Below are positions 2,010 through 50,854 of a DNA stretch of 64,000 nt, piece after piece. The DNA is from Escherichia coli. GTDB taxonomy: Bacteria > Pseudomonadota > Gammaproteobacteria > Enterobacterales > Enterobacteriaceae. Where the stretch lies: the NCBI RefSeq assembly GCF_003334255.1, contig NZ_QOWU01000010.1; one strand, 5' to 3'. The position numbers and the translations under genes were made by a program. The notes beneath the pieces were generated by a model. The model was not told the DNA's origin. It ran no database searches and saw only the letters and a program-made list of their open reading frames with translations. The stretch's first letter is position 1. Every line of letters starts with the position of its first letter.

Positions 2010-3512
2010 TTACGCTACGGCTGCTTTCGCCGCTTTGTCTGCAGCGTCATCCTGCGTCATGCGGTGCAGTTTCGGCGCGGTCAGCAGCATCAGTACTGCA
2101 ATAACGGCAGTAGCGACACCAATCTGCAAGAATACGCGACCATAGACTTCCAGTGACATCAGCGGATCGGTAACGTTATCCGGCACAGCCATCATACCCG
2201 CAACATAACCACCAATCAGGTTTGCACCGGCAGTGGTCAGGAACCAGCTACCCATAATGAAGCCCATCAGACGCTGCGGAACGAGTTGAGCAACCATTGC
2301 CAGACCCAGACCAGAGATCATCAGTTCCCCGATGCTCTGCAGGCCATAGCTTGCGACCAGCCAGCTTACAGACACGATACCAGCGTCAGACGCGAATTTC
2401 GCACCCAGCGGCAGAATCAGGAACGCACCAGAACACATCACCATGCCGATTGCAAACTTGGTTGGCATCGGCAGGGTATCGCCCATCTTGTTATAGATAG
2501 CGGCCAGAATCGGACTACCGATGATGATCCAGAACGGGTTCAGTGCCTGATACTGCTCAGGTTCTACGGCCAGACCCAGAATGGAGTGCTCAACGTTACG
2601 AATCGCAAAGAAGTTCAGTGACGTTGGCATCTGGCTGTACAGCACGAAGAAGATAATGGCTTCGAGCATCAGGATGAAGGCAACGATCATTTTACGACGC
2701 GCAGCACCTTTCATCGCGAAGGCTTCTTTACCGAAGATAACCACGATACCGAAGGCAACAACGCCCAGCGCCATACGCGCAACTTCCTGATTGTGCAGCA
2801 GCCAGGTGGCGATAGCGATCAGTGCCACAACACCAATAATGGTCAGCAGCAGGTTACGGTAGTTGATAGGCTCGAAGTCTGGTTTTGAACCGTACTGTTT
2901 AACCCAGCGTTGGCAGAAGGCGAAGTTAACGATAGTGATCAGCAGGCCTACAACGCTCAACGCAAACGCAACACTCCAGCCGTATTTCGCGGCCAGCCAC
3001 GGCGTAGCAATCATAGAGAAGAAAGAGCCGATGTTGACGGACATGTAGTACATGGTGAATGCACCGTCCAGACGCGGGTCGTTTTTCTCATAGCATGTAG
3101 AAAGCAGAGAAGACGGGTTAGCTTTAAACAGGCCGTTACCGACCGCAATAGCCGCCATACCCATATAAACGATACCGGCGTCGTGACCAGACCAGGCAAC
3201 CAGAGCATAACCAATCGCCAGCACAATAGCGCCGAGCATAATTACGCGTTTAGTACCCAGTACCTTGTCACCTAACCAGCCGCCGATAGCGACCAGACCA
3301 TAAACCAGGGCACTAAAGGAAGAGAAAAGGGTGATTGAATCCGCTTCAGACATACCCAGTTGTTTAACCAGGTAAACAGCCATAATTCCTTGTAGGCCGT
3401 AATAACCAAAACGTTCCCATAACTCAATCGAGAAGATGAGATAGAACGCCTTCGGTTGTTTGAAAGCGTTCAAACTGACGCTTTCAGTTGGTTTTTGGTT
3501 TGCAGTGGACAC
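2010..3512 (-). CDS. dtpA: dipeptide/tripeptide:H+ symporter (POT family)
   Basis: 500-aa polytopic membrane ORF with POT-family features; synteny next to gst and nth. Confidence 0.92.
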
Positions 3513-7139: not shown

Positions 7140-9932
<2,793 letters not shown>

Positions 9933-9933
<1 letters not shown>

Positions 9934-10514
9934 TACAACTTCACCAAACCACTAAAGCCCATAAAGGCCAGAGACATAAGACCTGCGGTAATTAACGCAA
10001 TGGCATTACCGCGAAAAGGTGCCGGGACATCAGCCACAGCAAGGCGTTCGCGGATGGCGGCGAAGAGCACCATCACCAGCGAGAAACCGACAGCGGCGGA
10101 AAAACCGTACAGCGCCGACTGCAAGAAATTGTGCCCGAGATTGATATTCAGCAACGCCACGCCGAGCACTGCACAGTTGGTGGTGATAAGCGGCAAAAAA
10201 ATCCCCAGCAGACGGTAAAGCACCGGGCTGGTTTTGCGCACCACCATCTCGGTGAACTGCACGACCACAGCAATCACCAGAATAAATGCCAGGGTGCGCA
10301 GGTAAATCAGATTAAGTGGGATCAAAATCCACGTATCGATAAGCCAGGCGCAAATAGACGCCAGCGTCATCACAAACGTTGTTGCCAGCCCCATGCCCAT
10401 CGCGGTTTCCAGTTTTTTGGAAACCCCCATAAACGGACAGAGACCGAGAAACTTGACCAGTACAAAGTTATTGACCAGTACAGTTCCGACAAACAGTAAC
10501 AGGTAGTCAGTCAT
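9933..10514 (-). CDS. rsxA: Rnf/Rsx complex subunit A
   Basis: 193-aa polytopic membrane ORF; first gene of rsx operon. Confidence 0.9.
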
Positions 10515-10590
10515 TTTTCGGCCTGAAATAAAAAAGCCGCCTATTATCCGTTAATCCAGAGCAGGCGACAACAGGTTAACTGTAAGGTTA

Positions 10591-11031
10591 TTACGGATTC
10601 ACAAACGTCGCTTTTACCCGCGACGAGCGTTTGAAATAGGGGACGATCAATGCGGTTGCCAACAAAGTAAACAGCAACTGGCGAACGGCTATGCCATCTT
10701 CCACGGGTGAAAAAGCGAATGCTTTTACTGCCAGCAATACGGAAATAAGCAGCCAGATAATATAGTGTTTAGGAACACAACGCCGACGTTTAAAGAAAGC
10801 GATGGTCAACCACAGTGTGTAATACCACAAGGCGATAGCGGTAATAAAAGAAACGCCCCATAAGATTTGTGTCGTCAGTGCTTGTCCGCCGAGCGTTTGA
10901 AATGTTTGCGGAGAAGATAACGCAGCGGTATACAGCAACAACGCCAGCGTCGTACTCAACAGAGCGACTAAAAGCCAGGCCAACGGGCCAAGCAACCAGC
11001 CTCCAATACGTTGTGGCGTTGTGGTGGTCAT
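10591..11031 (-). CDS. ydgK: inner membrane protein YdgK
   Basis: ORF 10591-11055 begins at TTG; likely ATG start MTTTTPQRIGGW at 11031 preceded by GGAGA; hydrophobic. Confidence 0.75.
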   Translation of the reverse strand: MTTTTPQRIGGWLLGPLAWLLVALLSTTLALLLYTAALSSPQTFQTLGGQALTTQILWGVSFITAIALWYYTLWLTIAFFKRRRCVPKHYIIWLLISVLLAVKAFAFSPVEDGIAVRQLLFTLLATALIVPYFKRSSRVKATFVNP

Positions 11032-41313: not shown

Positions 41314-41335
41314 GACGGCCTCTGCTGAGGCCGTC
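41314..41335. terminator. stem-loop between convergent pntB and tqsA
   Basis: GACGGCCTC-tgctg-AGGCCGTC hairpin immediately after pntB stop. Confidence 0.45.
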
Positions 41336-42240
41336 ACTCTTTATTGAGATCGCTTAACAGAACGGCGATGCTTTGACCTCCCGCTGTTTGTTCAAGCGCA
41401 ATTTTGACAATAATTGTCAACGGCACGGAAAGCAGCATACCCACCGGTCCTAACAACCATCCCCAAAAAATCAACGACAAAAATACCACCAATGTGGAAA
41501 GCCCCAGCCCACGCCCCATGATACGCGGCTCCAGAATATTGCCGAAGACCAGATTAATCAGCAGATATCCCGCCAGCACCAGCAACGCTTCGTAGAAGCC
41601 ATTAAACACCAGTACCTGAGCGATAGGGGGGATTGCCGCGAGGACTGAACCAATATTCGGGATGTAATTAAGCGCAAAGGCCAGCAATCCCCAGACAAAA
41701 GCGAAGCGAACATCGAGTGCGGCGAGCATCGCCCAGGCGACCAGGCCGGTGATGATGCTGATGGCTGTTTTCAGCACCAGATAATGAGAAACACTGTCAA
41801 TCGCACGTTGAATCGCCGCCATCCCTTCAACCGGACGCGCCATCATTTGCTGAAATTTTCCGGGCAATTGTGGCACTTCGAGCAGCATAAACAGCACCGT
41901 CAGCAGCAATAAAAATATTGATGACATGGCATTAGATAACTGCGTCAATAAGTTGGTGAGCAACGTCATCGCCGCGTTCGGATCAATATAATGCGCCAGC
42001 TGGTCAACTGAGACGTCAATCCCTACGCGTTGCAACAACGGTTCAAGCGCTTGCAGCGGCGTCATAATAGAGTTGCGATATTGCGGTAACGTCCGCGTCA
42101 ACTCGTTGAGCGCGGAACCCAGATAAGCTAATAGCAACACCATCGCCATCACGATGATGGTCATCAAAATCGACACCGCCAGTACACGCGGCACACGCCA
42201 GCGGACCATGTGTTGCACCAGCGGGTTAAGAATAACAGCA
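41334..42240 (-). pseudogene. tqsA: tqsA (AI-2 exporter) 3' fragment, separated from its 5' end by the island
   Basis: Frame encodes ...[26 protein letters not shown]... to the normal C-terminus (SDLNKE); upstream of codon AVI the frame hits TGA/TAA stops in island DNA. Confidence 0.85.
42232..42240. repeat. left copy of 9-bp direct repeat (att core / target duplication)
   Basis: ATAACAGCA; identical copy at 57098-57106; both lie within tqsA codons 43-46. Confidence 0.7.
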
Positions 42241-42367
42241 TTTTATCATTTAGTGTTTTTTGCTGTTTCATAATGTTTCAGGCTGTGCATTATGTTTTTG
42301 ATTATCAACAGATTTGTGATTTTCCTTGTTCCAGCTTGTTTCACGTTGTAGCCCTTTGTGCAACGAT

Positions 42368-42391
42368 CGGTGTAGTCACTGGTGTAGTCAC
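42368..42391. promoter_or_regulatory. tandem GGTGTAGTCAC repeat near left end (candidate integrase arm-type site)
   Basis: CGGTGTAGTCACTGGTGTAGTCAC; near-identical copy at 57001-57024 near the right end. Confidence 0.4.
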
Positions 42392-42415
42392 TTTTTCGTA
42401 AAGAGGGGGTAAAAC

Positions 42416-43645
42416 GTGAGCAGAGCAATGAACAAACTGAGCGATACCTTGCTAAGGAAACTTCATGGTAAGCCAGCGGAGAAAAACACGTTTTATAGTG
42501 ATGGCGGAAACCTGAGCGTGAAATATTTAACATCAGGGAAATTGACCTGGTATTTCACATACAGGGCCGGAACGGGAAGGGAGACACGACCCGAACGCAT
42601 TAAGCTGGGAAGTTATCCTGATCTGAGCCTGAAAGCAGCCAGGGAAAAAGCCGCACAGTGTCGCACATGGCTGGCTGAGGGGAAAAATCCACGTCATGAG
42701 ATGAATTACACCGTACAGGAAGCGTTAAAGCCCGTAACGGTTGGCGATGCGCTCACCTACTGGCTTGAGTATTACGTAAAGGAAAACCGCGTGGATTATA
42801 TCGCCCTGAAAAGGCGACTTAATAATCACGTAATACAGCAGATTGGTGCTATGCCGCTGGATAAATGCGAGCTACGGCACTGGCTGGCCTGTTTTGACCA
42901 GGTGGCAAAGCGAACGCCTGTTACTGCCGGATTCGTGCTACAGGCGTGCAAACAGGCGCTTAAGTTCTGCCGTAGGCGGCGCTATGCAATCAGCAACGTT
43001 CTGGACGATCTGAACGTGGCGGACGTTGGGAAAAAACCGGATATAAGCGAACGTGTCTTAAGTAACAAAGAACTTGGCGAATTATTGCAGGCACTGGACA
43101 AAAAAATATTTTCCCCTTACTACGTCGCGTTAATCCGCCTCCTGATTGTCTTCGGAGCCAGGACGGTAGAACTGAGGCTATCGGAGATCGGGGAGTGGGA
43201 TTTTACGGAAATGCTATGGACCGTTCCGAAGGAGCACAGCAAAACGAAGGTCGCAATATTCCGGCCCATACCGGAAGCGATCCTGCCGTTCGTCACGCAG
43301 CTGGTGGAGCAGAACAGGCACACGGGCTTATTGCTGGGGGAAGTGAAACAGGAGGCCAGCGTATCGCAGTATGGAAGATTAGCGCACAGGAGGCTTAATC
43401 ATCCTCACTGGTCACTGCATGACATCCGGCGCACCTTTACAACCATGCTGAACGATTTAGGCGTTGATCCGCATGTCGTGGAGCAGCTTACAGGTCATCA
43501 GATGCCAGGAATGCAGCGAGTTTATAATCATTCCCGTTATCTGGATGCTAAACGCAATGCGCTGGATATGTGGATGGAGCGGTTAGGGATACTGGCGGGA
43601 ACACATGAAAACGTAACCACGCTACCAGTAGCCAGAAGAAAATAA
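42416..43645 (+). CDS. int: tyrosine integrase, P4-type
   Basis: 409-aa ORF, GTG start after AGAGGGGG; N-terminal arm-binding domain, C-terminal catalytic region with HDIRRT and downstream Tyr (RVYNHSRY). Confidence 0.9.
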   Translation: MSRAMNKLSDTLLRKLHGKPAEKNTFYSDGGNLSVKYLTSGKLTWYFTYRAGTGRETRPERIKLGSYPDLSLKAAREKAAQCRTWLAEGKNPRHEMNYTVQEALKPVTVGDALTYWLEYYVKENRVDYIALKRRLNNHVIQQIGAMPLDKCELRHWLACFDQVAKRTPVTAGFVLQACKQALKFCRRRRYAISNVLDDLNVADVGKKPDISERVLSNKELGELLQALDKKIFSPYYVALIRLLIVFGARTVELRLSEIGEWDFTEMLWTVPKEHSKTKVAIFRPIPEAILPFVTQLVEQNRHTGLLLGEVKQEASVSQYGRLAHRRLNHPHWSLHDIRRTFTTMLNDLGVDPHVVEQLTGHQMPGMQRVYNHSRYLDAKRNALDMWMERLGILAGTHENVTTLPVARRK

Positions 43646-43832
43646 TTTTTTTCGTGTTTTTTCAGTATGCGCATACTGGATATGCGAACAGATACAACAT
43701 GCAACAATGAGCAACAATGCGGAACAACTACGAACAAGAGACGAAAAAGTGTACGGATTTATAAGTAGCTGATTTTTAATGTGTTACTGGTTTTTTATAC
43801 ACTAGCGAATCACTCTTTAAATAGCGAGAAAA

Positions 43833-43859
43833 AAGGCATGAAACAATATTTTATGCCTT
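43833..43859. terminator. stem-loop in int-alpA intergenic region (terminator-like, orientation ambiguous)
   Basis: AAGGCAT-gaaacaatatttt-ATGCCTT; T-run on the minus-strand side (TTTTTTCTCGC), weaker T-rich tract on plus side. Confidence 0.35.
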
Positions 43860-44019
43860 TGTATTAACATGAATTTAAATGATTTTATCCTGATTATTCC
43901 TGTTTCTGTAAACCATACGACCTCAACATTTGCCAACTCTGAATCATCCTGACACAATCAGACACATCCCAACGCAATAGAACACGAAATAACTCTTTAA
44001 GAAACGAAAGGGGGCAATA

Positions 44020-44208
44020 GTGTTAAGCACTGATCGGTTTATACGTGAAAAAGAATGCGAAAAGCTAACAGGCCTTAGCCGCTCATGCCGCTACCGCCTG
44101 GAAAAGGCCGGACAATTCCCATCACGTCGTAAACTTGGCGGTCGTTCCGTTGGCTGGTCTTTATCCGAGGTTCTGGCCTGGAAGGATAGCTGCAAGGCAG
44201 TTCATTAA
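44020..44208 (+). CDS. alpA: AlpA-family phage transcriptional regulator / excision activator
   Basis: 62-aa ORF, GTG start after AAGGGGG; MLSTDRFIREKECEKLTGLSRSCRYRLEKAGQFPSRRKLGGRSVGWSLSEVLAWK matches AlpA/Vis-type HTH proteins. Confidence 0.85.
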   Translation: MLSTDRFIREKECEKLTGLSRSCRYRLEKAGQFPSRRKLGGRSVGWSLSEVLAWKDSCKAVH

Positions 44209-44351
44209 TCACGCTGGCGGCACACAGCCGCCACACATCAATCATCTGAACACAGAGCTATAACCATGAAGATTGAATATACGCCAGAACGTGGGCGGGG
44301 ATTCGTTCGCCCTGGTGAGACTGGAAAACCACAAAATTGGGGTTTTTCAGG

Positions 44352-44388
44352 CATAAAAAAAGCGGCCCCGAAATGGAGCCGCCTTTCT
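44352..44388 (-). terminator. rho-independent terminator for minus-strand island transcript
   Basis: On minus strand: AAAGGCGGCTCC-atttc-GGGGCCGCTTT followed by T7. Confidence 0.45.
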
Positions 44389-44477
44389 GAACAGATAACA
44401 CGCTGCGCCGTTTGTGTGTGTGATCCCAAACATAAGCACGGGGATGATAGCCGCTATCAGGCTGGTGGGCAATGCAA

Positions 44478-44651
44478 TCAGTCTGGTTCAGTTCGTTGCC
44501 ATACCTGCAATGAGCGCTTTTCCCTGTACTCTTTAAGGAATTGCTCAAGGGCAAAAGCACATGGCGCGAATCTTTCTGATTCATGCTCTATCTTTCTGCG
44601 CCGTCTTTTCCGTGCCGGTGATAATGTTTTGGTCAATTCTTTATCGGTCAT
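44478..44651 (-). CDS. hypothetical small basic protein (57 aa)
   Basis: MTDKELTKTLSPARKRRRRKIEHESERF...; ATG preceded by AGGA; downstream of orf101 on same strand, before the minus-strand terminator. Confidence 0.3.
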   Translation of the reverse strand: MTDKELTKTLSPARKRRRRKIEHESERFAPCAFALEQFLKEYREKRSLQVWQRTEPD

Positions 44652-44708
44652 TGTGTTGTCCTGCATAGCAATGCGCCGTAATACCTCACACCACGGCGCT
44701 GATAGTGA

Positions 44709-45014
44709 TTATTCTGATTCTTTGGCCTTGCGGCGCTGTAGTTCTTCACGAGCGATGGCGATAAGTTGCCCGAGTTCTTCCGTAGCTTTAATACCAATTT
44801 TTTCCACTTGCGCCAATGCATCGAGAGAAGAAATCAGAGGATTTTCACTGCTTCCTTCTGCCTGGCGGCGGGCGATCTCCCCGCGCATGGCGGTTACTAT
44901 GAATCCGGCGTTGCTTTCGCCGTCCAGTTTTACGGATTCCATGCCATCAAAAGCATCATGTGGGATACGAATTGAAATCTGTTTTGATTTGTCGTTGATA
45001 GTGTTTTTTGCCAT
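44709..45014 (-). CDS. hypothetical protein (101 aa), candidate island regulator
   Basis: MAKNTINDKSKQISIRIPHDAFDG...; ATG preceded by AGGAGA; reads away from paired operator-like inverted repeats. Confidence 0.55.
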   Translation of the reverse strand: MAKNTINDKSKQISIRIPHDAFDGMESVKLDGESNAGFIVTAMRGEIARRQAEGSSENPLISSLDALAQVEKIGIKATEELGQLIAIAREELQRRKAKESE

Positions 45015-45036
45015 GTGCATTCTCCTAAACAAAAGA

Positions 45037-45112
45037 TGTGATTCAGTATACACAAAAAAGAATCACAAAAAACACTTGACCTGTGATTCAGTTGAATTTA
45101 ATTTAAATCACA
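45037..45112. promoter_or_regulatory. divergent promoter region with two operator-like inverted repeats
   Basis: TGTGATTC-N15-GAATCACA (45037-45067) and TGTGATTC-N16-AATCACA (45082-45112); TTGACC -35-like hexamer at 45076-45081. Confidence 0.55.
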
Positions 45113-45201
45113 CCTCAGTAAGAGGATGTAAACGACAACGCCCCGAACTGTTTGCGGCAGTAGCGGGGCGTCTAACCAAACCGTTAACAGGAGTAACGAT
45201 T

Positions 45202-45399
45202 ATGGCTGGAACACAGCATACCCCACGTCTGGCGCACACACAAACTGCCTTTGTGTGGCGTTTTCTGGCACTAAGTGCCGGAGAATCTCAAATCATCCAC
45301 GTAACCGCCTGGACGGAACGCGAAGCGCGTAGCCGTTGCCCGTCCGGTTGTGTTGCTGTATTCGCCGCCCGTATTCGTCAGGGGGTGTGCCATGCCTGA
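45202..45399 (+). CDS. small protein (65 aa), possibly Icd/Ash-like
   Basis: MAGTQHTPRLAHTQTAFVWRFLALSAGESQ...; ATG after AGGAG (45189-45193); first gene rightward of the operator region; family assignment from memory only. Confidence 0.45.
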   Translation: MAGTQHTPRLAHTQTAFVWRFLALSAGESQIIHVTAWTEREARSRCPSGCVAVFAARIRQGVCHA

Positions 45400-45712
45400 C
45401 ATGACCAATTACCAGTACCTGATTAATCCGCATTTTAACTGTGAGCATGATATTGCTAAAAAGGTTTATTCCGCTGCGGATGGGGCTACTGACAATATAT
45501 CAATGGCTGTTTCGTCAATTGGTAGCCTGATGTGGTATGCGTCAGAAAATAAGGAATATGACGAAAAGGCCATGCGCATTGATATGGGTAATATTGGTTT
45601 GTTACTGGCAATGCTTGGACATTTTGATATTTCGTTACGGTGCACCATTGAAAATGCCACAGATGCATTAAATGCTATAAAGAAAGCGAATACTGATTCA
45701 AATCGGGGATAA
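45392..45712 (+). CDS. hypothetical protein (106 aa)
   Basis: MPDMTNYQYLINPHFNCEHDIAKKVYSAADG...; start overlaps previous stop; no family recognised. Confidence 0.5.
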   Translation: MPDMTNYQYLINPHFNCEHDIAKKVYSAADGATDNISMAVSSIGSLMWYASENKEYDEKAMRIDMGNIGLLLAMLGHFDISLRCTIENATDALNAIKKANTDSNRG

Positions 45713-45718
45713 ATAATC

Positions 45719-46018
45719 ATGAGAACGTATTTATCTGGCTTTACTGCCAGCGGTTATGCACACCCCAAAATTATCCCCGGCGCTATTTATCTGGATAAGA
45801 ACGGTAACAGAGTAACGGTAAAAGAACTGATGTTTGACCGTGTGTATTTTATTCGTGATGGCTATTCATTTCATAGTTCGCTGAACGTGGAGATCTTTAT
45901 TAGCAGATTCCGGCGGGAAATCCCGCTTTCCAGAAATAACCATGTGTCATGTATGGATGTTGATAAAAAACTACAGGAACTGAAAAACATGATTGCCGCG
46001 TGGAGAGAGCAGAAATGA
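45719..46018 (+). CDS. hypothetical protein (99 aa)
   Basis: MRTYLSGFTASGYAHPKIIPGAIYLDKNGNRVTVKELMFDRVYFIRDGYSF...; stop overlaps primase start (ATGA). Confidence 0.5.
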   Translation: MRTYLSGFTASGYAHPKIIPGAIYLDKNGNRVTVKELMFDRVYFIRDGYSFHSSLNVEIFISRFRREIPLSRNNHVSCMDVDKKLQELKNMIAAWREQK

Positions 46019-47832
46019 AAAAAGCGCCAAATTTAAAACACCAGCCGCGTGACAAAATGACGGAAGTCATCATTTTTGCGGGTAGTGATGCGTGGGCACA
46101 TGCGAAGCAGTGGCAGGAACAGGACGGGCGACTGGCTGGCGATAACGTGCCACCTGTCTGGCTTGGAGAGCAACAACTTGCCGAACTGGACAACCTGCAA
46201 ATCGTACCGGACGGACGCTATCGCGTGCGTCTCTACCAGGCGGGGTTATTGCGTCCGGGGCTTGTTAATACCATCGGGCAGAAACTGGCAGCGGCAGGTG
46301 TCAGGGATGCTGATTATTACCCTGAAGGAATGCACAGCCAGAAACGGGAGAACTGGCGCGAATATCTGGAACGTGAGCGGGGAGAGCTGGCGGAAAAGAA
46401 AAAGGTAGTTGAACTGCCTGTAAAGAAAAAAGAGCGGGTAAAAGACGATAACGCTTCATCACTGGCGCTTAACCAGATGGGAGCAAGTCAACGCGGCGAA
46501 GTTCTCCTGGCACATTATGGCGGTGAACTGGCGATTCATGCTGACTCTGACACTGTTCACTATTACAACGGCGTTGTATGGGAGCCAGTACAGGATAAAG
46601 AATTACAGCGAGCTATGGCGCAGATTTTCATTGATGCGGAGATCAGCTATTCGCAGAACGCCATTAAATCGGCGGTCGATACCATGAAGTTAAGTTTGCC
46701 TGTAATGGGGAATACAGCCCGTAACCTGATTGGATTCAGTAACGGTGTTTTTGATACCCGGACAGGCGATTTTCGGGAGCATAACAAAAACGACTGGTTG
46801 TTAATTGCCAGTGAATTACCTTTCAGCCCACCAGCAGAGGGGGAAACGCTGGCAACACATGCGCCGAATTTCTGGAAGTGGTTACGCCGTTCGGTGGCTG
46901 AGAATGACCGCAAGGCGGATCGCGTACTGGCTGCATTATTCATGGTGCTGGCGAACCGGTACGACTGGCAGTTATTCATTGAGGTAACAGGTCCAGGGGG
47001 AAGTGGTAAAAGCGTGATGGCGGAGATTTGCACCATGCTGGCGGGTAAGGCCAACACGGTATCGGCAAGCATGAAGGCGCTGGAAGATGCCAGGGAACGC
47101 GCGTTAGTGGTTGGCTTTTCGCTGATTATCATGCCGGATATGACCCGTTACGCTGGTGATGGCGCAGGAATTAAGGCCATTACAGGCGGTGACAAGGTGG
47201 CAATCGACCCGAAGCATAAAGCCCCCTACTCAACACGCATTCAGGCGGTAGTGTTGGCGGTGAACAATAACGCCATGTCATTCAGTGACCGCAGCGGGGG
47301 GATTTCACGTCGTCGGGTGATATTCAATTTTTCGGAGGTTGTACCGGAAAACGAACGCGACCCCATGCTGGCAGAAAAAATAGAAGGAGAGCTGGCGGTT
47401 GTGATTCGCCACCTGCTTACTCGTTTTTCTGACCAGGACGCAGCTAAACGCCTGCTGTATGAGCAGCAGAAATCAGAAGAAGCTCTGGTGATAAAACGCG
47501 AGGGCGATTCGCTGGTGGACTTCTGCGGCTATCTCATGTCGTCGGTAATGTGTGATGGTCTGTTAGTGGGTAATGCCGAAATTATTCCGTTCAGTCCGCG
47601 CAGGTATCTTTATCACGCCTATCTGGCATATATGAGGGCACACGGATTCGGTAAACCTGTAACACTGACGCGCTTCGGTAAAGATATGCCGGGGGCAATG
47701 GCGGAATATGGCAGGGAGTATATGAAACGGAAAACGAAGCACGGTTTGCGTTCAAACGTGACACTGACGGAGGAATCAGAAGACTGGATGCCATCATGTG
47801 TATCGGTCACTAATGACGATAGCAAAAATTAA
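46015..47832 (+). CDS. P4 alpha-like replication protein (primase/NTPase, P-loop)
   Basis: 605-aa ORF with Walker A GPGGSGKS and Walker B-like region; followed immediately by TGTTCACC iteron cluster. Confidence 0.8.
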   Translation: MKKAPNLKHQPRDKMTEVIIFAGSDAWAHAKQWQEQDGRLAGDNVPPVWLGEQQLAELDNLQIVPDGRYRVRLYQAGLLRPGLVNTIGQKLAAAGVRDADYYPEGMHSQKRENWREYLERERGELAEKKKVVELPVKKKERVKDDNASSLALNQMGASQRGEVLLAHYGGELAIHADSDTVHYYNGVVWEPVQDKELQRAMAQIFIDAEISYSQNAIKSAVDTMKLSLPVMGNTARNLIGFSNGVFDTRTGDFREHNKNDWLLIASELPFSPPAEGETLATHAPNFWKWLRRSVAENDRKADRVLAALFMVLANRYDWQLFIEVTGPGGSGKSVMAEICTMLAGKANTVSASMKALEDARERALVVGFSLIIMPDMTRYAGDGAGIKAITGGDKVAIDPKHKAPYSTRIQAVVLAVNNNAMSFSDRSGGISRRRVIFNFSEVVPENERDPMLAEKIEGELAVVIRHLLTRFSDQDAAKRLLYEQQKSEEALVIKREGDSLVDFCGYLMSSVMCDGLLVGNAEIIPFSPRRYLYHAYLAYMRAHGFGKPVTLTRFGKDMPGAMAEYGREYMKRKTKHGLRSNVTLTEESEDWMPSCVSVTNDDSKN

Positions 47833-47846
47833 ACTTATGGAATAAC

Positions 47847-48076
47847 TGTTCACCACTGTTCACCCTGTCATAAATATCTTTTGTATCAGTATGTTATAGG
47901 GTGAACAGTTATTTATGAACTGTTCACCAAACTATTCACTGTTCACCTTTTTGATTGTTTATTGAGCTTCAAGGGTGAACAGTGGTGAATAGTTGGTGAA
48001 TAGTTTTTGTGAAACTGTTCACCCCTTAACATTATGAATTAAAAGATAAAATATCAAAAGGTGAACAGGTGAAGGG
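47847..48076. repeat. iteron cluster (TGTTCACC / GGTGAACA), candidate origin of replication
   Basis: At least 8 exact 8-mers in both orientations (47847, 47857, 47899, 47921, 47940, 47974, 48016, 48060) plus degenerate GGTGAATA copies in an AT-rich 230-bp non-coding stretch. Confidence 0.8.
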
Positions 48077-48119
48077 TTAAAACGCAAAAATTTTAATTTA
48101 CTGCTGTGAGATAAAGCCT

Positions 48120-48365
48120 ATGACAGCGAAGCACACAAAAAAATCACAATCGCACGCCCTTGATTTGACGGAACACTGGTTAAGGGTGTCGATAAAAATC
48201 ATCGACCGCAACGCCGGGGAAGGATATGCGAAAGCACATCCCGAACTGATTAGCTCATTCATGACAACGGCAGCTGCAAACTTTGCCACGCTGACAGAAC
48301 GGGAGATTGCCGAAGCGGAACAGGTGACAACCATCAACGTTAAAACCGGAGAGCAGACAGCATGA
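48120..48365 (+). CDS. hypothetical protein (81 aa)
   Basis: MTAKHTKKSQSHALDLTEHWLRVSIKIIDRNAG...; stop overlaps start of the SSB-like gene. Confidence 0.45.
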   Translation: MTAKHTKKSQSHALDLTEHWLRVSIKIIDRNAGEGYAKAHPELISSFMTTAAANFATLTEREIAEAEQVTTINVKTGEQTA

Positions 48366-48772
48366 CAGCACAGATAGCAGCTTACGGGCGGCTGGTGGAC
48401 GACCCGCAGGTAAAACAGACCAGTAAGGGCACACCGATGACGCTGGCGCGTATGGCGGTATCGTTGCCATGTAGTCAGGCGCAGGATGGGCAGGCGACGT
48501 TATGGCTATCGGTCATCGCATTTGGTAAGCAGGCCGACTTCCTGGCTAAACATCAAAAAGGCGACGTTGCCAGCGTATCCGGCACGATGCAGGTCAGCCA
48601 GTGGACCGGACAGAACGGGGAAACGCGGCAGGGTTATCAGGTTATTGCAGACAGCGTAATCAGTGCCCGTGCGGCACGTCCTGGCGGGAACAGACGCAAA
48701 ACCACAGGCACACAGGGTAATCAGCCACCAGCGGGAGGCGATGACCCTTACGGTGACGGTATTCCGTTCTGA
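48362..48772 (+). CDS. single-stranded DNA-binding protein-like (OB fold with acidic C-terminal tip)
   Basis: 136-aa ORF with Gly/Gln-rich linker and C-terminal DDPYGDGIPF resembling the SSB DDDIPF tail. Confidence 0.7.
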   Translation: MTAQIAAYGRLVDDPQVKQTSKGTPMTLARMAVSLPCSQAQDGQATLWLSVIAFGKQADFLAKHQKGDVASVSGTMQVSQWTGQNGETRQGYQVIADSVISARAARPGGNRRKTTGTQGNQPPAGGDDPYGDGIPF

Positions 48773-48782
48773 GGGGGTGGCG

Positions 48783-49055
48783 ATGGTACATGACCGCATA
48801 GCGGAAGAACTCGAGGCGAAAGGCTTTTACCGGAGGGCGGCGGCGCGATGGGGTGAAGTCATGCTGCTGGTGGAGACAGACAAGGAACGGCATCAGGTTA
48901 CGATGCGACGGCTGGAATGTTCCAGGAAGGCACAGAAGCCACCGGAGCCGCCGGATAACTTCGGAGACCTGAGAAAGGCAGTAGATCGCACTTATGCTGA
49001 AATGGGTATAGATGGTGTAAGCGATGAAATATGGCGTAATTACCCAGACAGCTAA
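48783..49055 (+). CDS. PerC-family transcriptional regulator-like protein
   Basis: 90-aa ORF MVHDRIAEELEAKGFYRRAAARWGEVMLLVETDKERHQVTMRRLEC...; the AExLExKGxxRRAAxRWxEVM pattern is typical of PerC/Pch proteins; ATG after GAGGGGG. Confidence 0.55.
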   Translation: MVHDRIAEELEAKGFYRRAAARWGEVMLLVETDKERHQVTMRRLECSRKAQKPPEPPDNFGDLRKAVDRTYAEMGIDGVSDEIWRNYPDS

Positions 49056-49060
49056 TCAAC

Positions 49061-49084
49061 AGCCGGAGAAATCCGGCTTTTTTT
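49061..49084 (+). terminator. rho-independent terminator
   Basis: AGCCGGAG-aa-ATCCGGCT hairpin followed by T7. Confidence 0.65.
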
Positions 49085-49179
49085 GCACCAGTTGAAACGG
49101 TATGGCGCATTACCGGGTTTTCGTCACGGTCAGGCATAGTTACTATCTGAAACAAACAGACACAACAGAGGAAAAAACA

Positions 49180-49404
49180 ATGCCGATGAAATTTGATGAG
49201 ATATTAAAACAGCGTGATAAATACCATGCTGACAACATGGAGACGATGAGCATCAATGATTACCGCGCATTCCTGGAGACGGGCGCACTGATTGAAAAGG
49301 ATCAGCATGGTTTTGTGAGATGTGCTCTGTCCGGTGAAATGCTGGCGGTAAATCCTGAACAGATAGATGCATTGATAGAATTTCTGAAAGGGATCAGGGA
49401 CTGA
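49180..49404 (+). CDS. hypothetical protein (74 aa)
   Basis: MPMKFDEILKQRDKYHADNMETMSINDYRAFLETG...; ATG after AGGAAAAAA; followed by a terminator. Confidence 0.45.
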   Translation: MPMKFDEILKQRDKYHADNMETMSINDYRAFLETGALIEKDQHGFVRCALSGEMLAVNPEQIDALIEFLKGIRD

Positions 49405-49414
49405 GCACGCATAC

Positions 49415-49436
49415 AGCCGGAGCAATCCGGCTTTTT
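49415..49436 (+). terminator. rho-independent terminator (near-duplicate of 49061-49084)
   Basis: AGCCGGAG-caa-TCCGGCT hairpin followed by T5. Confidence 0.65.
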
Positions 49437-49696
49437 GTCATTTTTTGTAAATTATTTGTTCGTGGTTGTTCCACGTTGTTCACTGACAGGATCGGCATAT
49501 TTTACCCGAACTGAATCATGAGTATTCTCGCCCGTGGTGCCAGGACGCTGGGGCCACTTTCCCGCCTGTTAATGTGCTCGCCAATATTCATTACCAGGCG
49601 GGAAAACGATCGGTGCGATTGCTGATTTCCTTATGAAAAACGGTTGAGTTTTTGCCGCGTCCTGGAGTTCCTTACTTAACCCCAGGACTTTTTTTT

Positions 49697-50854
49697 ATGC
49701 CGAGAATAATCGAATTACGCCAGCAGAAAACCGCCATTAAAAATCAGATGCGCGACATGCTGGAGAACGCGGAAAAAGAAAACCGCAGCCTTAACGATGC
49801 AGAGGGCGCAAAATTTGACGAATTACGCGCTAAAGCTGAATCCCTCGATAAAGACATTTCCCGCCTTGAAGCCATTGCAGACGAAGAGCGCAGCAAGCCA
49901 GGTAAAAGCAGCCAGACCACTGACCCGGCAGAACTCCGCAACTACATCCTGACAGGTGAAACCCGCGCATTAAGTACAGGCGTTCCCGCTGATGGTGGTT
50001 ATACCGTTATCCCCGAACTGAACACCGAAATCATGCGAATGCTGACGGATGAATCCACCATGCGCCGCATCTGTACCGTGAAGAAAATCAGCAGCAACGA
50101 GTTTAAGCAGCTTGTTTCCGCTGGCGGTGCGACCGTTAACCACGGTGAAGAGGGTAAGACACGCGAACAGACCAGCACCCCGCAGATTAACGAGGTGAGC
50201 ATTAAGCTGTATCCGGTCTATGCGTACCCGCGCACCACACAGGAAATCGTGGATTTTTCCGATGTGGACATCCTTTCATGGCTGACGGGTGAGATTGGCG
50301 ACACCTTCACGGAAACCGAAGAAAGCGATCTGGTTGTGGGCGACGGTGACAAAAAAGCAAAAGGTTTTTTATCCGTACCCCGTGCAGAGAAGAACGACAA
50401 AGAGCGTGATTTTGGTACGTTGCAGGTAATTAAACCTTCCGAATCTCTGGCGTGGACATCTGCGGACCCGCTGATCGACCTGAAATTTGCATTACGTAAA
50501 AAATACCGCAAAAACGCGGTCTGGGTGGTTAACTCCACGACGGCGGCAAAACTTCAGAAGGTGAAGAACGCGAACGGTGATTACATCTGGCGCGACCGTT
50601 TACAGGCGGGTGATCCTGATACGTTGCTGGGCCTTCCGGTCGAATATCTGGAGTTTATGCCTGATAACGTTATTGCCCTGGGTGACTTCAAACGCGGTTA
50701 CTACATTGTTGATCACGAAACAGGTGTTCGCACCAGACCGGACAACCTCACAGAGCCGGGCTTCATCAAAATTTTCACGCAGAAATATTTAGGCGGTGGC
50801 GTGGTGGATTCGAACGCGATCAAGATTCTGGAACTGCCACAGGACGACGATTAA
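49697..50854 (+). CDS. major capsid protein, HK97 fold, with N-terminal coiled-coil (delta/scaffold-like) region
   Basis: 385 aa from ATG 49697 (MPRIIELRQQKTAIKNQMRDMLENAEKENRSLNDAEGAKFDELRAK...); capsid-family core follows. Confidence 0.85.
   Translation: MPRIIELRQQKTAIKNQMRDMLENAEKENRSLNDAEGAKFDELRAKAESLDKDISRLEAIADEERSKPGKSSQTTDPAELRNYILTGETRALSTGVPADGGYTVIPELNTEIMRMLTDESTMRRICTVKKISSNEFKQLVSAGGATVNHGEEGKTREQTSTPQINEVSIKLYPVYAYPRTTQEIVDFSDVDILSWLTGEIGDTFTETEESDLVVGDGDKKAKGFLSVPRAEKNDKERDFGTLQVIKPSESLAWTSADPLIDLKFALRKKYRKNAVWVVNSTTAAKLQKVKNANGDYIWRDRLQAGDPDTLLGLPVEYLEFMPDNVIALGDFKRGYYIVDHETGVRTRPDNLTEPGFIKIFTQKYLGGGVVDSNAIKILELPQDDD

Follow-up and report, generated by a model that had tools for sequence, protein, structure and literature searches.

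Putative half-sites for a ribbon-helix-helix protein inside a conserved stop-free frame of a capsid-forming chromosomal island of Escherichia coli

Does a phage-inducible chromosomal island (PICI) of a Gram-negative bacterium carry a repressor of its own, and which DNA would such a repressor read? The existence of a repressor in these islands was stated to be unclear (PMC6092414). The question is raised by positions 45,015 to 45,201 of a 64,000-nt stretch of the Escherichia coli contig NZ_QOWU01000010.1 (assembly GCF_003334255.1), the whole of which is referred to here as the window. These 187 nt separate a minus-strand gene, ylcI, from a plus-strand operon that begins with an Icd/Kil-like gene (icd) and leads to replication genes. 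The surrounding island, judged from its genes and its site, is a capsid-forming PICI (cf-PICI) inserted in tqsA. An earlier note on the window had described two operator-like inverted repeats (dyads) in this region and proposed a lysogeny/induction switch with the 101-aa product of ylcI as a candidate repressor. Our analysis favours, with a probability of roughly two in three, the reading that the four dyad arms are operator half-sites for this protein, the island's own member of the YlcI/YnfO family and predicted to be of the ribbon-helix-helix (RHH) type.

Direct reading and repeat searches bore out the two near-identical dyads 45 bp apart, and both flanking starts, the ATG of the minus-strand open reading frame (ORF) of 101 aa at 45014 and that of the plus-strand gene at 45202, were as previously described. 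Dyad 1 consists of TGTGATTC (45037-45044), then 15 nt, then GAATCACA (45060-45067), and dyad 2 of a left arm TGTGATTC (45082-45089) and a right arm AATCACA (45106-45112). Read as an 8-mer, the right arm of dyad 2 is AAATCACA (45105-45112), and both dyads share one geometry, TGTGATTC-N15-(G/A)AATCACA, with RAATCACA as the right arm; the N15 and N16 spacings distinguished earlier come down to a single mismatch at the innermost arm base, A45105. The arms lie 23 bp apart within each dyad, centre to centre, and the same 45-bp offset that separates the dyad centres separates the two copies of an 11-nt direct repeat, TGTGATTCAGT, formed by the left arms. The hexamer TTGACC, which a dyad had been said to overlap, abuts the left arm of dyad 2 without overlapping it. 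The features of the region are as follows.

44709..45014, minus strand: ylcI, encoding the 101-aa YlcI/YnfO-family RHH protein, candidate repressor (profile and dimer model)
45020..45025, minus strand: ribosome-binding site of ylcI (GGAGAA as read; GGAG-type motifs at the same place in related loci)
45037..45067, no strand: dyad 1, proposed operator OL (repeat reading, conserved positions, co-variation with the RHH beta-strand)
45046..45051, minus strand: predicted -10 of the leftward ylcI promoter, TATACT, between the arms of dyad 1 (consensus match)
45076..45081, plus strand: predicted -35 of the rightward icd/kil-replication promoter, TTGACC (consensus match)
45082..45112, no strand: dyad 2, proposed operator OR (same evidence as for dyad 1)
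45097..45104, plus strand: predicted rightward -10, either TTTAAT with a 15-nt spacer or TAATTT with a 17-nt spacer
45202..45399, plus strand: Icd/Kil-like gene, 65 aa, first of the rightward operon (NF033153 phage_ICD_like, E 5.4e-18)

Each dyad is thus predicted to bracket one -10 box of two back-to-back promoters, and both candidate rightward boxes fall between the arms of dyad 2. The description of the region as one of divergent control is supported. The repeats themselves could in principle be a chance feature of an AT-rich spacer, in which small repeats are common: among 20,000 dinucleotide-preserving shuffles of the 187 nt, 54 gave a 7-mer present four times in both orientations. In the 64-kb window, TGTGATTC has five copies on both strands, three of them inside 54 bp of the switch region, and elsewhere in the island the half-site is found as single copies, at chance frequency only. 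We take the dyads as real mainly because the half-sites are conserved across genera, an argument stronger than the shuffle statistic. As their positions are kept in different genera and the copies at any one locus all vary in concert, we give chance practically no weight. Origin iterons were also considered for the dyads and rejected.

This conservation was seen in a comparison set of 38 related loci from about 15 genera, of which 32 were obtained from one genome per species and five more through exact protein look-up. Loci with the long form of ylcI have four sites, at approximately -98, -75, -53 and -30 from the ylcI ATG, and loci with a short, 60-aa form have about three sites, 34-45 bp apart. 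In the alignment, the promoter elements are constant, with TTGAC at the rightward -35 in most loci and TATACT or TATAAT at the leftward -10 column in nearly all, and the sites between them vary; the rightward -10 aligns with TATAAT, AATAAT or GATAAA in other loci. Seven classes of the beta-strand of the adjacent protein match seven classes of half-site, with no exception among the 38 loci.

(K/R)QISIRI: half-site TGTGATTC, in Escherichia, Yersinia, Edwardsiella and Klebsiella
QLTTVRV or QLFTVRV: half-site TGTGTTTC, 8 loci
QMTTVRI: half-site TGTATTTCAC, 18 loci, short 60-aa forms
QSLTARI: half-site TGTAAGxC, 2 loci
QQLNARF: half-site TGGTATTCAC, 1 locus
LQVSVRL: half-site GGTGnnCAC, 1 locus
xKNxRx: half-site ATACACAC, 4 loci, partly direct repeats

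Variation in the otherwise conserved YlcI protein is confined to residues 2-15, Arg16 is invariant in the protein alignment, and the half-sites, by inspection, seem to keep a constant GTG/CAC core. The fixed positions and the co-variation with the beta-strand support the earlier suggestion that the repeats behave as operators. A natural swap is found in the Citrobacter protein P0018, which has 86% overall identity to that of the window and aligns identically with it from about residue 25, with the head QLTTVRV; the half-sites at its locus are of the TGTGTTTC type.

A second swap replaces the protein altogether. The cf-PICI of E. coli O157:H7 is about 98% identical to the window on both flanks of a segment that extends from the ylcI stop to the N-terminus of icd. 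Its AlpA regulator has one residue different from that of the window, and from residue 12 onwards the two Icd proteins are the same. At the position of ylcI, the replaced segment has an unannotated minus-strand ORF for an Arc-like RHH protein of 63 aa (PQFRMRISPELKEQF..., 3221-3412 of locus L035, strain O157:H7 86-24), and two GTGGTCACC repeats directly follow a TTGACA -35. RefSeq lists only an overlapping plus-strand ORF at this site, a 247-aa protein in the output of the Prokaryotic Genome Annotation Pipeline (PGAP), and this long ORF stops 26 nt before the icd ATG. The arrangement resembles the lambdoid immunity cassettes (imm-lambda versus imm434), in which a repressor gene and its operators are swapped as a unit between near-identical elements. 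It differs in that the protein belongs to another family, that there is a single repressor and not a CI/Cro pair, and that the cassette lies within an overlapping ORF.

Because these natural swaps, in the Citrobacter protein P0018 and the O157:H7 island, separate the candidates, the repeats, as far as the compared loci tell, track the RHH gene and not AlpA, Icd or a host factor. The swaps therefore bear on the possibility that another factor binds the repeats, be it AlpA, the Icd/Kil-like protein, a protein of the helper phage or, on the host side, a regulator such as CRP. The arms do contain the letters of CRP half-sites, TGTGA and TCACA, but the spacing here is TGTGA-N21-TCACA against the CRP consensus of TGTGA-N6-TCACA, and the TGTGA letters are not conserved in related loci; furthermore, loci from the same host genera differ in their half-sites, a variation that a host factor could not accommodate. 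Families of Icd-like proteins are labelled 'transcriptional repressor' in PHROGs, a label that probably stems from the old P4 annotation 'cI gene product' of the eta/kil frame; in P4, cI has since been established to work as an RNA. Gram-negative PICIs are known to be activated by AlpA (PMC6092414), but the window and the O157:H7 island share AlpA, apart from its one difference, and the core of Icd, and have unrelated repeats. We see only a small chance that one of these factors is the reader of the repeats, and a helper-phage protein may be a second ligand.

Still less probable, and in our judgement very unlikely, is that the inverted repeats work as RNA hairpins in a transcript crossing the region, as signals for pausing, processing or translation, and not as DNA operators. 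In a plus-strand transcript, either dyad could fold into a stem of 8 bp with a loop of 15 nt, and a structured RNA, the icd leader, exists just downstream. What makes this reading unlikely is that the sites at several loci (L004, L005, L012, L013 and L032) are partly or wholly direct repeats, which cannot pair; moreover, the arms hold their position relative to the promoter hexamers, and their sequence changes track the adjacent DNA-binding protein.

The 101-aa protein matches the NCBIfam profile NF041551 (YlcI_YnfO_N) over residues 9-50 with 65.7 bits against a cut-off of 30, and RefSeq gives the YlcI/YnfO label to an identical gene; in some database sources, homologues are named 'CopG family' or 'Arc-like'. 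The sequence follows the pattern of strand (KQISIRI), helix, helix and long helix. An AlphaFold2 model of the monomer has helices at residues 19-28, 35-53 and 59-100 and an unstructured N-terminus, and a fused-dimer model has, in both copies, a strand at residues 10-18 and helices at 19-28 and 35-54, with a predicted local distance difference test (pLDDT) score of about 83-85. The fold predicted by the dimer model is RHH. A Foldseek search with the monomer model gave no match because the strand does not form without its partner.

The YlcI family comes in a short form of 59-63 aa, with the RHH part only, and a long form of about 100 aa with a conserved C-terminal helix, residues 59-100 in the window protein. 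The C-terminal part of the long form is kept across operator-specificity classes, which suggests a shared partner or a role in assembly. With the predicted RHH dimer and the co-variation of beta-strand and half-site, the 101-aa protein is the best candidate reader of the repeats, in line with its earlier nomination as repressor, and the earlier statement that no CI-like or Stl-like helix-turn-helix (HTH) repressor is recognisable also held.

A protein that binds the repeats need not be the master repressor. RHH proteins are commonly autoregulated antitoxins, and the YlcI protein might only regulate itself, act in an antitoxin-like manner on Kil/Icd, or activate a promoter. Its sole Pfam hint is to the antitoxin-type PSK_trans_fac (E 0.066), and the leftward promoter, in which no -35 is evident, may need activation. 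Induction in the PICIs studied so far is AlpA-dependent (PMC6092414), and Kil causes cell killing in P4, as outlined in PMC10111431. Against such a limited role, dyad 2 lies between the -35 and the predicted rightward transcription start, a repressing position, and the rightward promoter also heads the replication genes through overlapping ORFs, so that repression of kil would repress replication as well. We regard a role short of master repressor as unlikely.

The region is not plain intergenic DNA: a stop-free frame crosses both it and the repressor gene. The frame and the genes before and within it are listed below.

44020..44208, plus strand: alpA, 62 aa, activator/excisionase-type regulator (phrog_2790, E 1.7e-17)
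44266..45399, plus strand: eta-like ORF, 377 codons, stop-free (ORF listing; first ATG in frame at 44266)
44478..44666, minus strand: orf62, 62 aa, downstream of ylcI (phrog_21027, E 1.6e-15)

The frame of the icd ATG is open for 993 nt upstream, back to the alpA stop, and opens at 44209. From there it runs antisense through orf62 and ylcI, crosses the operators and the leader, and continues in frame into the Icd/Kil-like gene. From the ylcI stop to the icd ATG, 29 of the 38 loci have no stop in this frame, and in those loci the other two frames have 4-18 stops each. The spacing from the ylcI ATG to the icd ATG, measured in 27 of the 29 open-frame loci, is 187, 190, 193, 199, 205, 208 or 211 nt, always 1 mod 3, and loci with a shifted or broken frame are those with other spacings; the two open-frame loci outside this measurement (L028 and L031) have upstream sequences near-identical to measured loci.

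Codon usage within ylcI carries the same mark. Across 37 distinct ylcI genes, trinucleotides that make an antisense stop number zero in the eta-like phase and 109 and 192 in the other two. None of the 201 codons before His or Gln ends in T, compared with 24.9% of codons elsewhere in these genes and an equivalent figure of 21% in six other genes of the window, and there is no Tyr codon among 2,997. Read from these counts, it is selection that keeps the eta-like frame open, and the selected feature is probably translation itself. We also observed that alpA and the long ORF share a frame, with the TAA of alpA as the sole stop between them, and that a hairpin without a T-run, GGCGGC-ACACA-GCCGCC (about 44217-44233), is found in the 57 nt that precede the ATG at 44266. 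In E. coli NMBU-W12E19, PGAP has a 'pseudo' Icd-like gene, which overlaps ylcI, in place of the 5' portion of the long ORF.

This layout recalls that of the phage-plasmid P4. In P4, an ORF (8168..8812) begins inside vis, the AlpA homologue, contains kil and ends in a 65-aa segment preceded by a Shine-Dalgarno sequence. Both elements thus have an AlpA/Vis homologue followed by a long ORF from its 3' end, with an internal promoter (predicted here), a nested 65-aa Kil/Icd-like gene of one NCBIfam family at the end of the ORF, and a P4-type primase downstream. P4 Kil and the Icd-like protein of the window both fall into NF033153 (P4 Kil, E 1.6e-21). As BLASTP gave no alignment between the two, we hold their homology at the profile level only; a tblastn search of phage records with the Icd-like protein returned one 16.5-kb record, and P4 was not among the matches. 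In the P4 model, as outlined in PMC10111431, Kil is a truncated Eta, full-length Eta is made only from an upstream late promoter, and translation of Eta is coupled to the alpA homologue and prevents termination.

The two elements differ in what silences the internal promoter. In P4 this falls to the CI (C4-type) antisense RNA and its seqA/isrK target, which act on the transcript. Rfam finds C4 (74.9 bits), isrK (60.8 bits) and c4-a1b1 in P4, and at E<=1 no C4 or isrK in positions 42000-50000 of the window and none in the O157:H7 island. The interval of the immunity RNA is here filled by an antisense-encoded RHH gene and four DNA half-sites, and the leader is about 90 nt long, with a different conserved hairpin, against roughly 300 nt estimated for P4. 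Because of this Rfam result, we read this locus, by analogy, as the P4 design without a detectable immunity RNA, with the rightward promoter as the proposed counterpart of P4 PLE. The earlier remark that the control logic may differ from that of described satellites was not supported: the logic is not far from theirs, and the layout is the alpA/vis-eta-kil order of P4, so that we see a variant of P4 immunity and not something unrelated.

Other known repressors offer partial parallels. Like Arc and Mnt of P22, CopG, and omega of pSM19035, the YlcI protein is small, with a beta-strand and two helices and a predicted dimer sheet, and several short repeated sites overlap promoter elements. As leads only, the C-terminal helix could build a tetramer as in Mnt, and the arm AATCACA fits the omega heptad WATCACW. 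Differences are that the PDB search gave no significant sequence match to any solved RHH protein, that the arms are 23 bp apart and not adjacent, and that the gene lies antisense inside a translated frame. Stl and Rpr of Staphylococcus aureus pathogenicity islands (SaPIs) and Gram-positive PICIs are HTH proteins of larger size, whose repression is relieved when they bind a protein of the helper phage. The layout is alike, with a gene on the integrase side, divergent from the replication operon, and operators between them (PMC6092414). The fold predicted here is nevertheless RHH and not CI-like HTH, and the documented trigger of Gram-negative PICIs is expression of AlpA.

Several results weigh against the YlcI protein as reader and repressor at these arms. 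The 23-bp arm spacing is wider than in classical RHH operators. The operators and the N-terminal codons of ylcI are 25-100 bp apart, and linkage could account in part for their being inherited together. The dimer model is an artificial linker fusion built on a shallow alignment (22 rows) with a mean pLDDT of 63; among its top Foldseek matches are AcaB and a chain of the F-plasmid relaxosome (9f0z), with E-values that are not significant. A PDB sequence search with the family profile likewise returned nothing significant, and the Pfam hint to PSK_trans_fac falls short of significance. Literature searches on YlcI, YnfO or DUF3950 found no functional study and no binding or expression data, and searches for an RHH repressor in Gram-negative PICIs found no study.

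The promoters add to these points. Both are consensus guesses, the rightward -10 being weak and ambiguous in register, no convincing -35 was located for the leftward one, and a promoter/terminator scan, with counts at chance level, listed neither. Furthermore, the long frame is broken or shifted in 9 of the 38 loci, and profile searches found no recognisable domain in the eta-like product upstream of its Icd-like end, so that a case can be made for its translation only and not for a protein product. The experiments with AlpA, finally, were made on EcCICFT073 and EcCIEDL933 and not on the allele of the window (PMC6092414).

In the account that we infer for binding, oligomeric state, promoter positions, repression and bypass, one RHH dimer would read each arm through its N-terminal beta-strand, and the long C-terminal helix would probably link dimers into a higher-order complex. 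Occupation of dyad 1 would make the leftward repressor promoter autoregulated, and occupation of dyad 2 would shut the rightward icd/kil-replication promoter. In the quiescent island, the RHH protein on the four arms would limit its own synthesis and keep the island silent. After helper induction, AlpA would rise, and an AlpA-dependent upstream promoter would yield transcripts translated across 44266-45399. Being translated, these would be spared Rho-dependent termination, pass any roadblock set by the repressor and extend into the replication genes, and the convergent transcription through ylcI would oppose its expression.

This course of induction is drawn from the layout and by analogy. AlpA activates its own promoter, and its overexpression alone induces EcCICFT073 (PMC6092414), which fits a bypass. 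The earlier label of an induction switch goes beyond the evidence because the known trigger of Gram-negative PICIs is AlpA and not loss of a repressor (PMC6092414). The dyads may instead be an immunity lock on the internal promoter, bypassed by induced transcription. A fuller scheme is possible, though we think it somewhat less likely than not: AlpA-driven transcription and translation of the bypass ORF would silence ylcI, push polymerase through the bound operators and shield the transcript from Rho, making a bistable switch of overlapping genes that is exchanged between satellites as an immunity cassette, with specificity set by five beta-strand residues.

Downstream of the operators, the leader of icd has two conserved helices.

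45137..45172, plus strand: leader helix 1, conserved stem-loop with a 13-bp interrupted stem (inverted repeat I10, covariation)
45182..45198, plus strand: leader helix 2, 5-bp hairpin whose loop presents the Shine-Dalgarno sequence GGAG (45190-45193), before the ATG at 45202

A conserved single-stranded motif, TCTAACCA (TCTNACC, 45171-45178), follows helix 1. In 32 sequences, 88% of the cells of the whole structure are paired, compared with 30-42% when the partner is slid, and compensatory changes occur in 10 of 18 pairs; no shuffle reached the observed values. Helix 2 has 95% of cells paired and compensatory changes in four of five pairs. The leader of the window folds at -32.4 kcal/mol (z -2.84), no Rfam family matched the element, and the Arc-type cassette of O157:H7 has it too. 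The pairing figures refer to the hand-named structure, as the automatic RNAalifold consensus recovered parts only because loop lengths vary. A terminator-like hairpin, CACACAAA-CTGCC-TTTGTGTG with GCGTTTTCTG after it, is seen at 45237-45257, 35 nt into the icd/kil ORF. The O157:H7 island shares this hairpin, which may result from coding for HTQTAFVWRFL, and the scan count is at chance level.

The assignment of the island follows E. coli NMBU-W12E19, in which a region 99.1% identical is annotated as a tqsA-inserted island. That annotation, up to the end of the fetched stretch, gave the cf-PICI gene list: an integrase, an AlpA-type regulator, the YlcI/YnfO protein, Icd-like proteins, DUF4222, a primase-type protein, SSB and PerC, and a capsid set of major capsid protein, prohead protease, portal, connector/head-completion proteins, HNH and terminase. 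ORFs of matching sizes are present in the window, and the cf-PICI family is described in 10.1101/2022.09.08.507074. The exact switch allele was found in 41 of 5,426 complete E. coli genomes. The ORF beside the integrase (window 41334-42416) represents the 3' portion of tqsA and is marked as truncated in that near-identical genome, which places the island within tqsA; a tRNA scan found none in the window. NMBU-W12E19 (L001, about 10300-10960) has approximately 457 bp more than the window, probably in the icd region, with two adjacent Icd-like genes.

Among the neighbouring genes, phrog_2790, the family of alpA, is labelled 'excisionase and transcriptional regulator'; the gene is labelled an HTH regulator in the 99%-identical island, and its homologue in locus L036 carries PF05930 Phage_AlpA. 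The gene orf62 is possibly co-transcribed with ylcI. On the replication side, ORFs overlap end to start, beginning with the Icd/Kil-like stop, which overlaps the next ORF start at 45393, and a 610-aa ORF encodes a P4-family primase. Just past the primase gene (window 47838-48075), GGTGAACAG / CTGTTCACC and GGTGAATAGTT repeats in both orientations surround an AT-rich stretch, and this cluster is probably the replication origin of the island, with iterons. The only Rfam matches in positions 42000-50000 of the window were spurious, of the (plant) miRNA type, and fell on these origin repeats.

The antisense overlap of ylcI and the eta-like frame is a clear natural case of two strands constrained simultaneously. 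It has also left annotation inconsistent, with a 'pseudo' Icd-like gene in one genome, a 247-aa hypothetical protein in another and the RHH gene of O157:H7 missed entirely. The comparison with P4 links PICIs and cf-PICIs to the immunity design of that satellite and suggests that one slot may be filled by an RNA-based lock or by a protein-based one; this would account for the high variability of the zone. Orthogonal repressor/operator pairs this small could serve engineered PICI vectors. Ever since Gram-negative PICIs were described it has been asked whether they have a repressor, and to this question the locus contributes a candidate protein, defined operator sequences and a proposed specificity code open to testing by swaps of a few residues.

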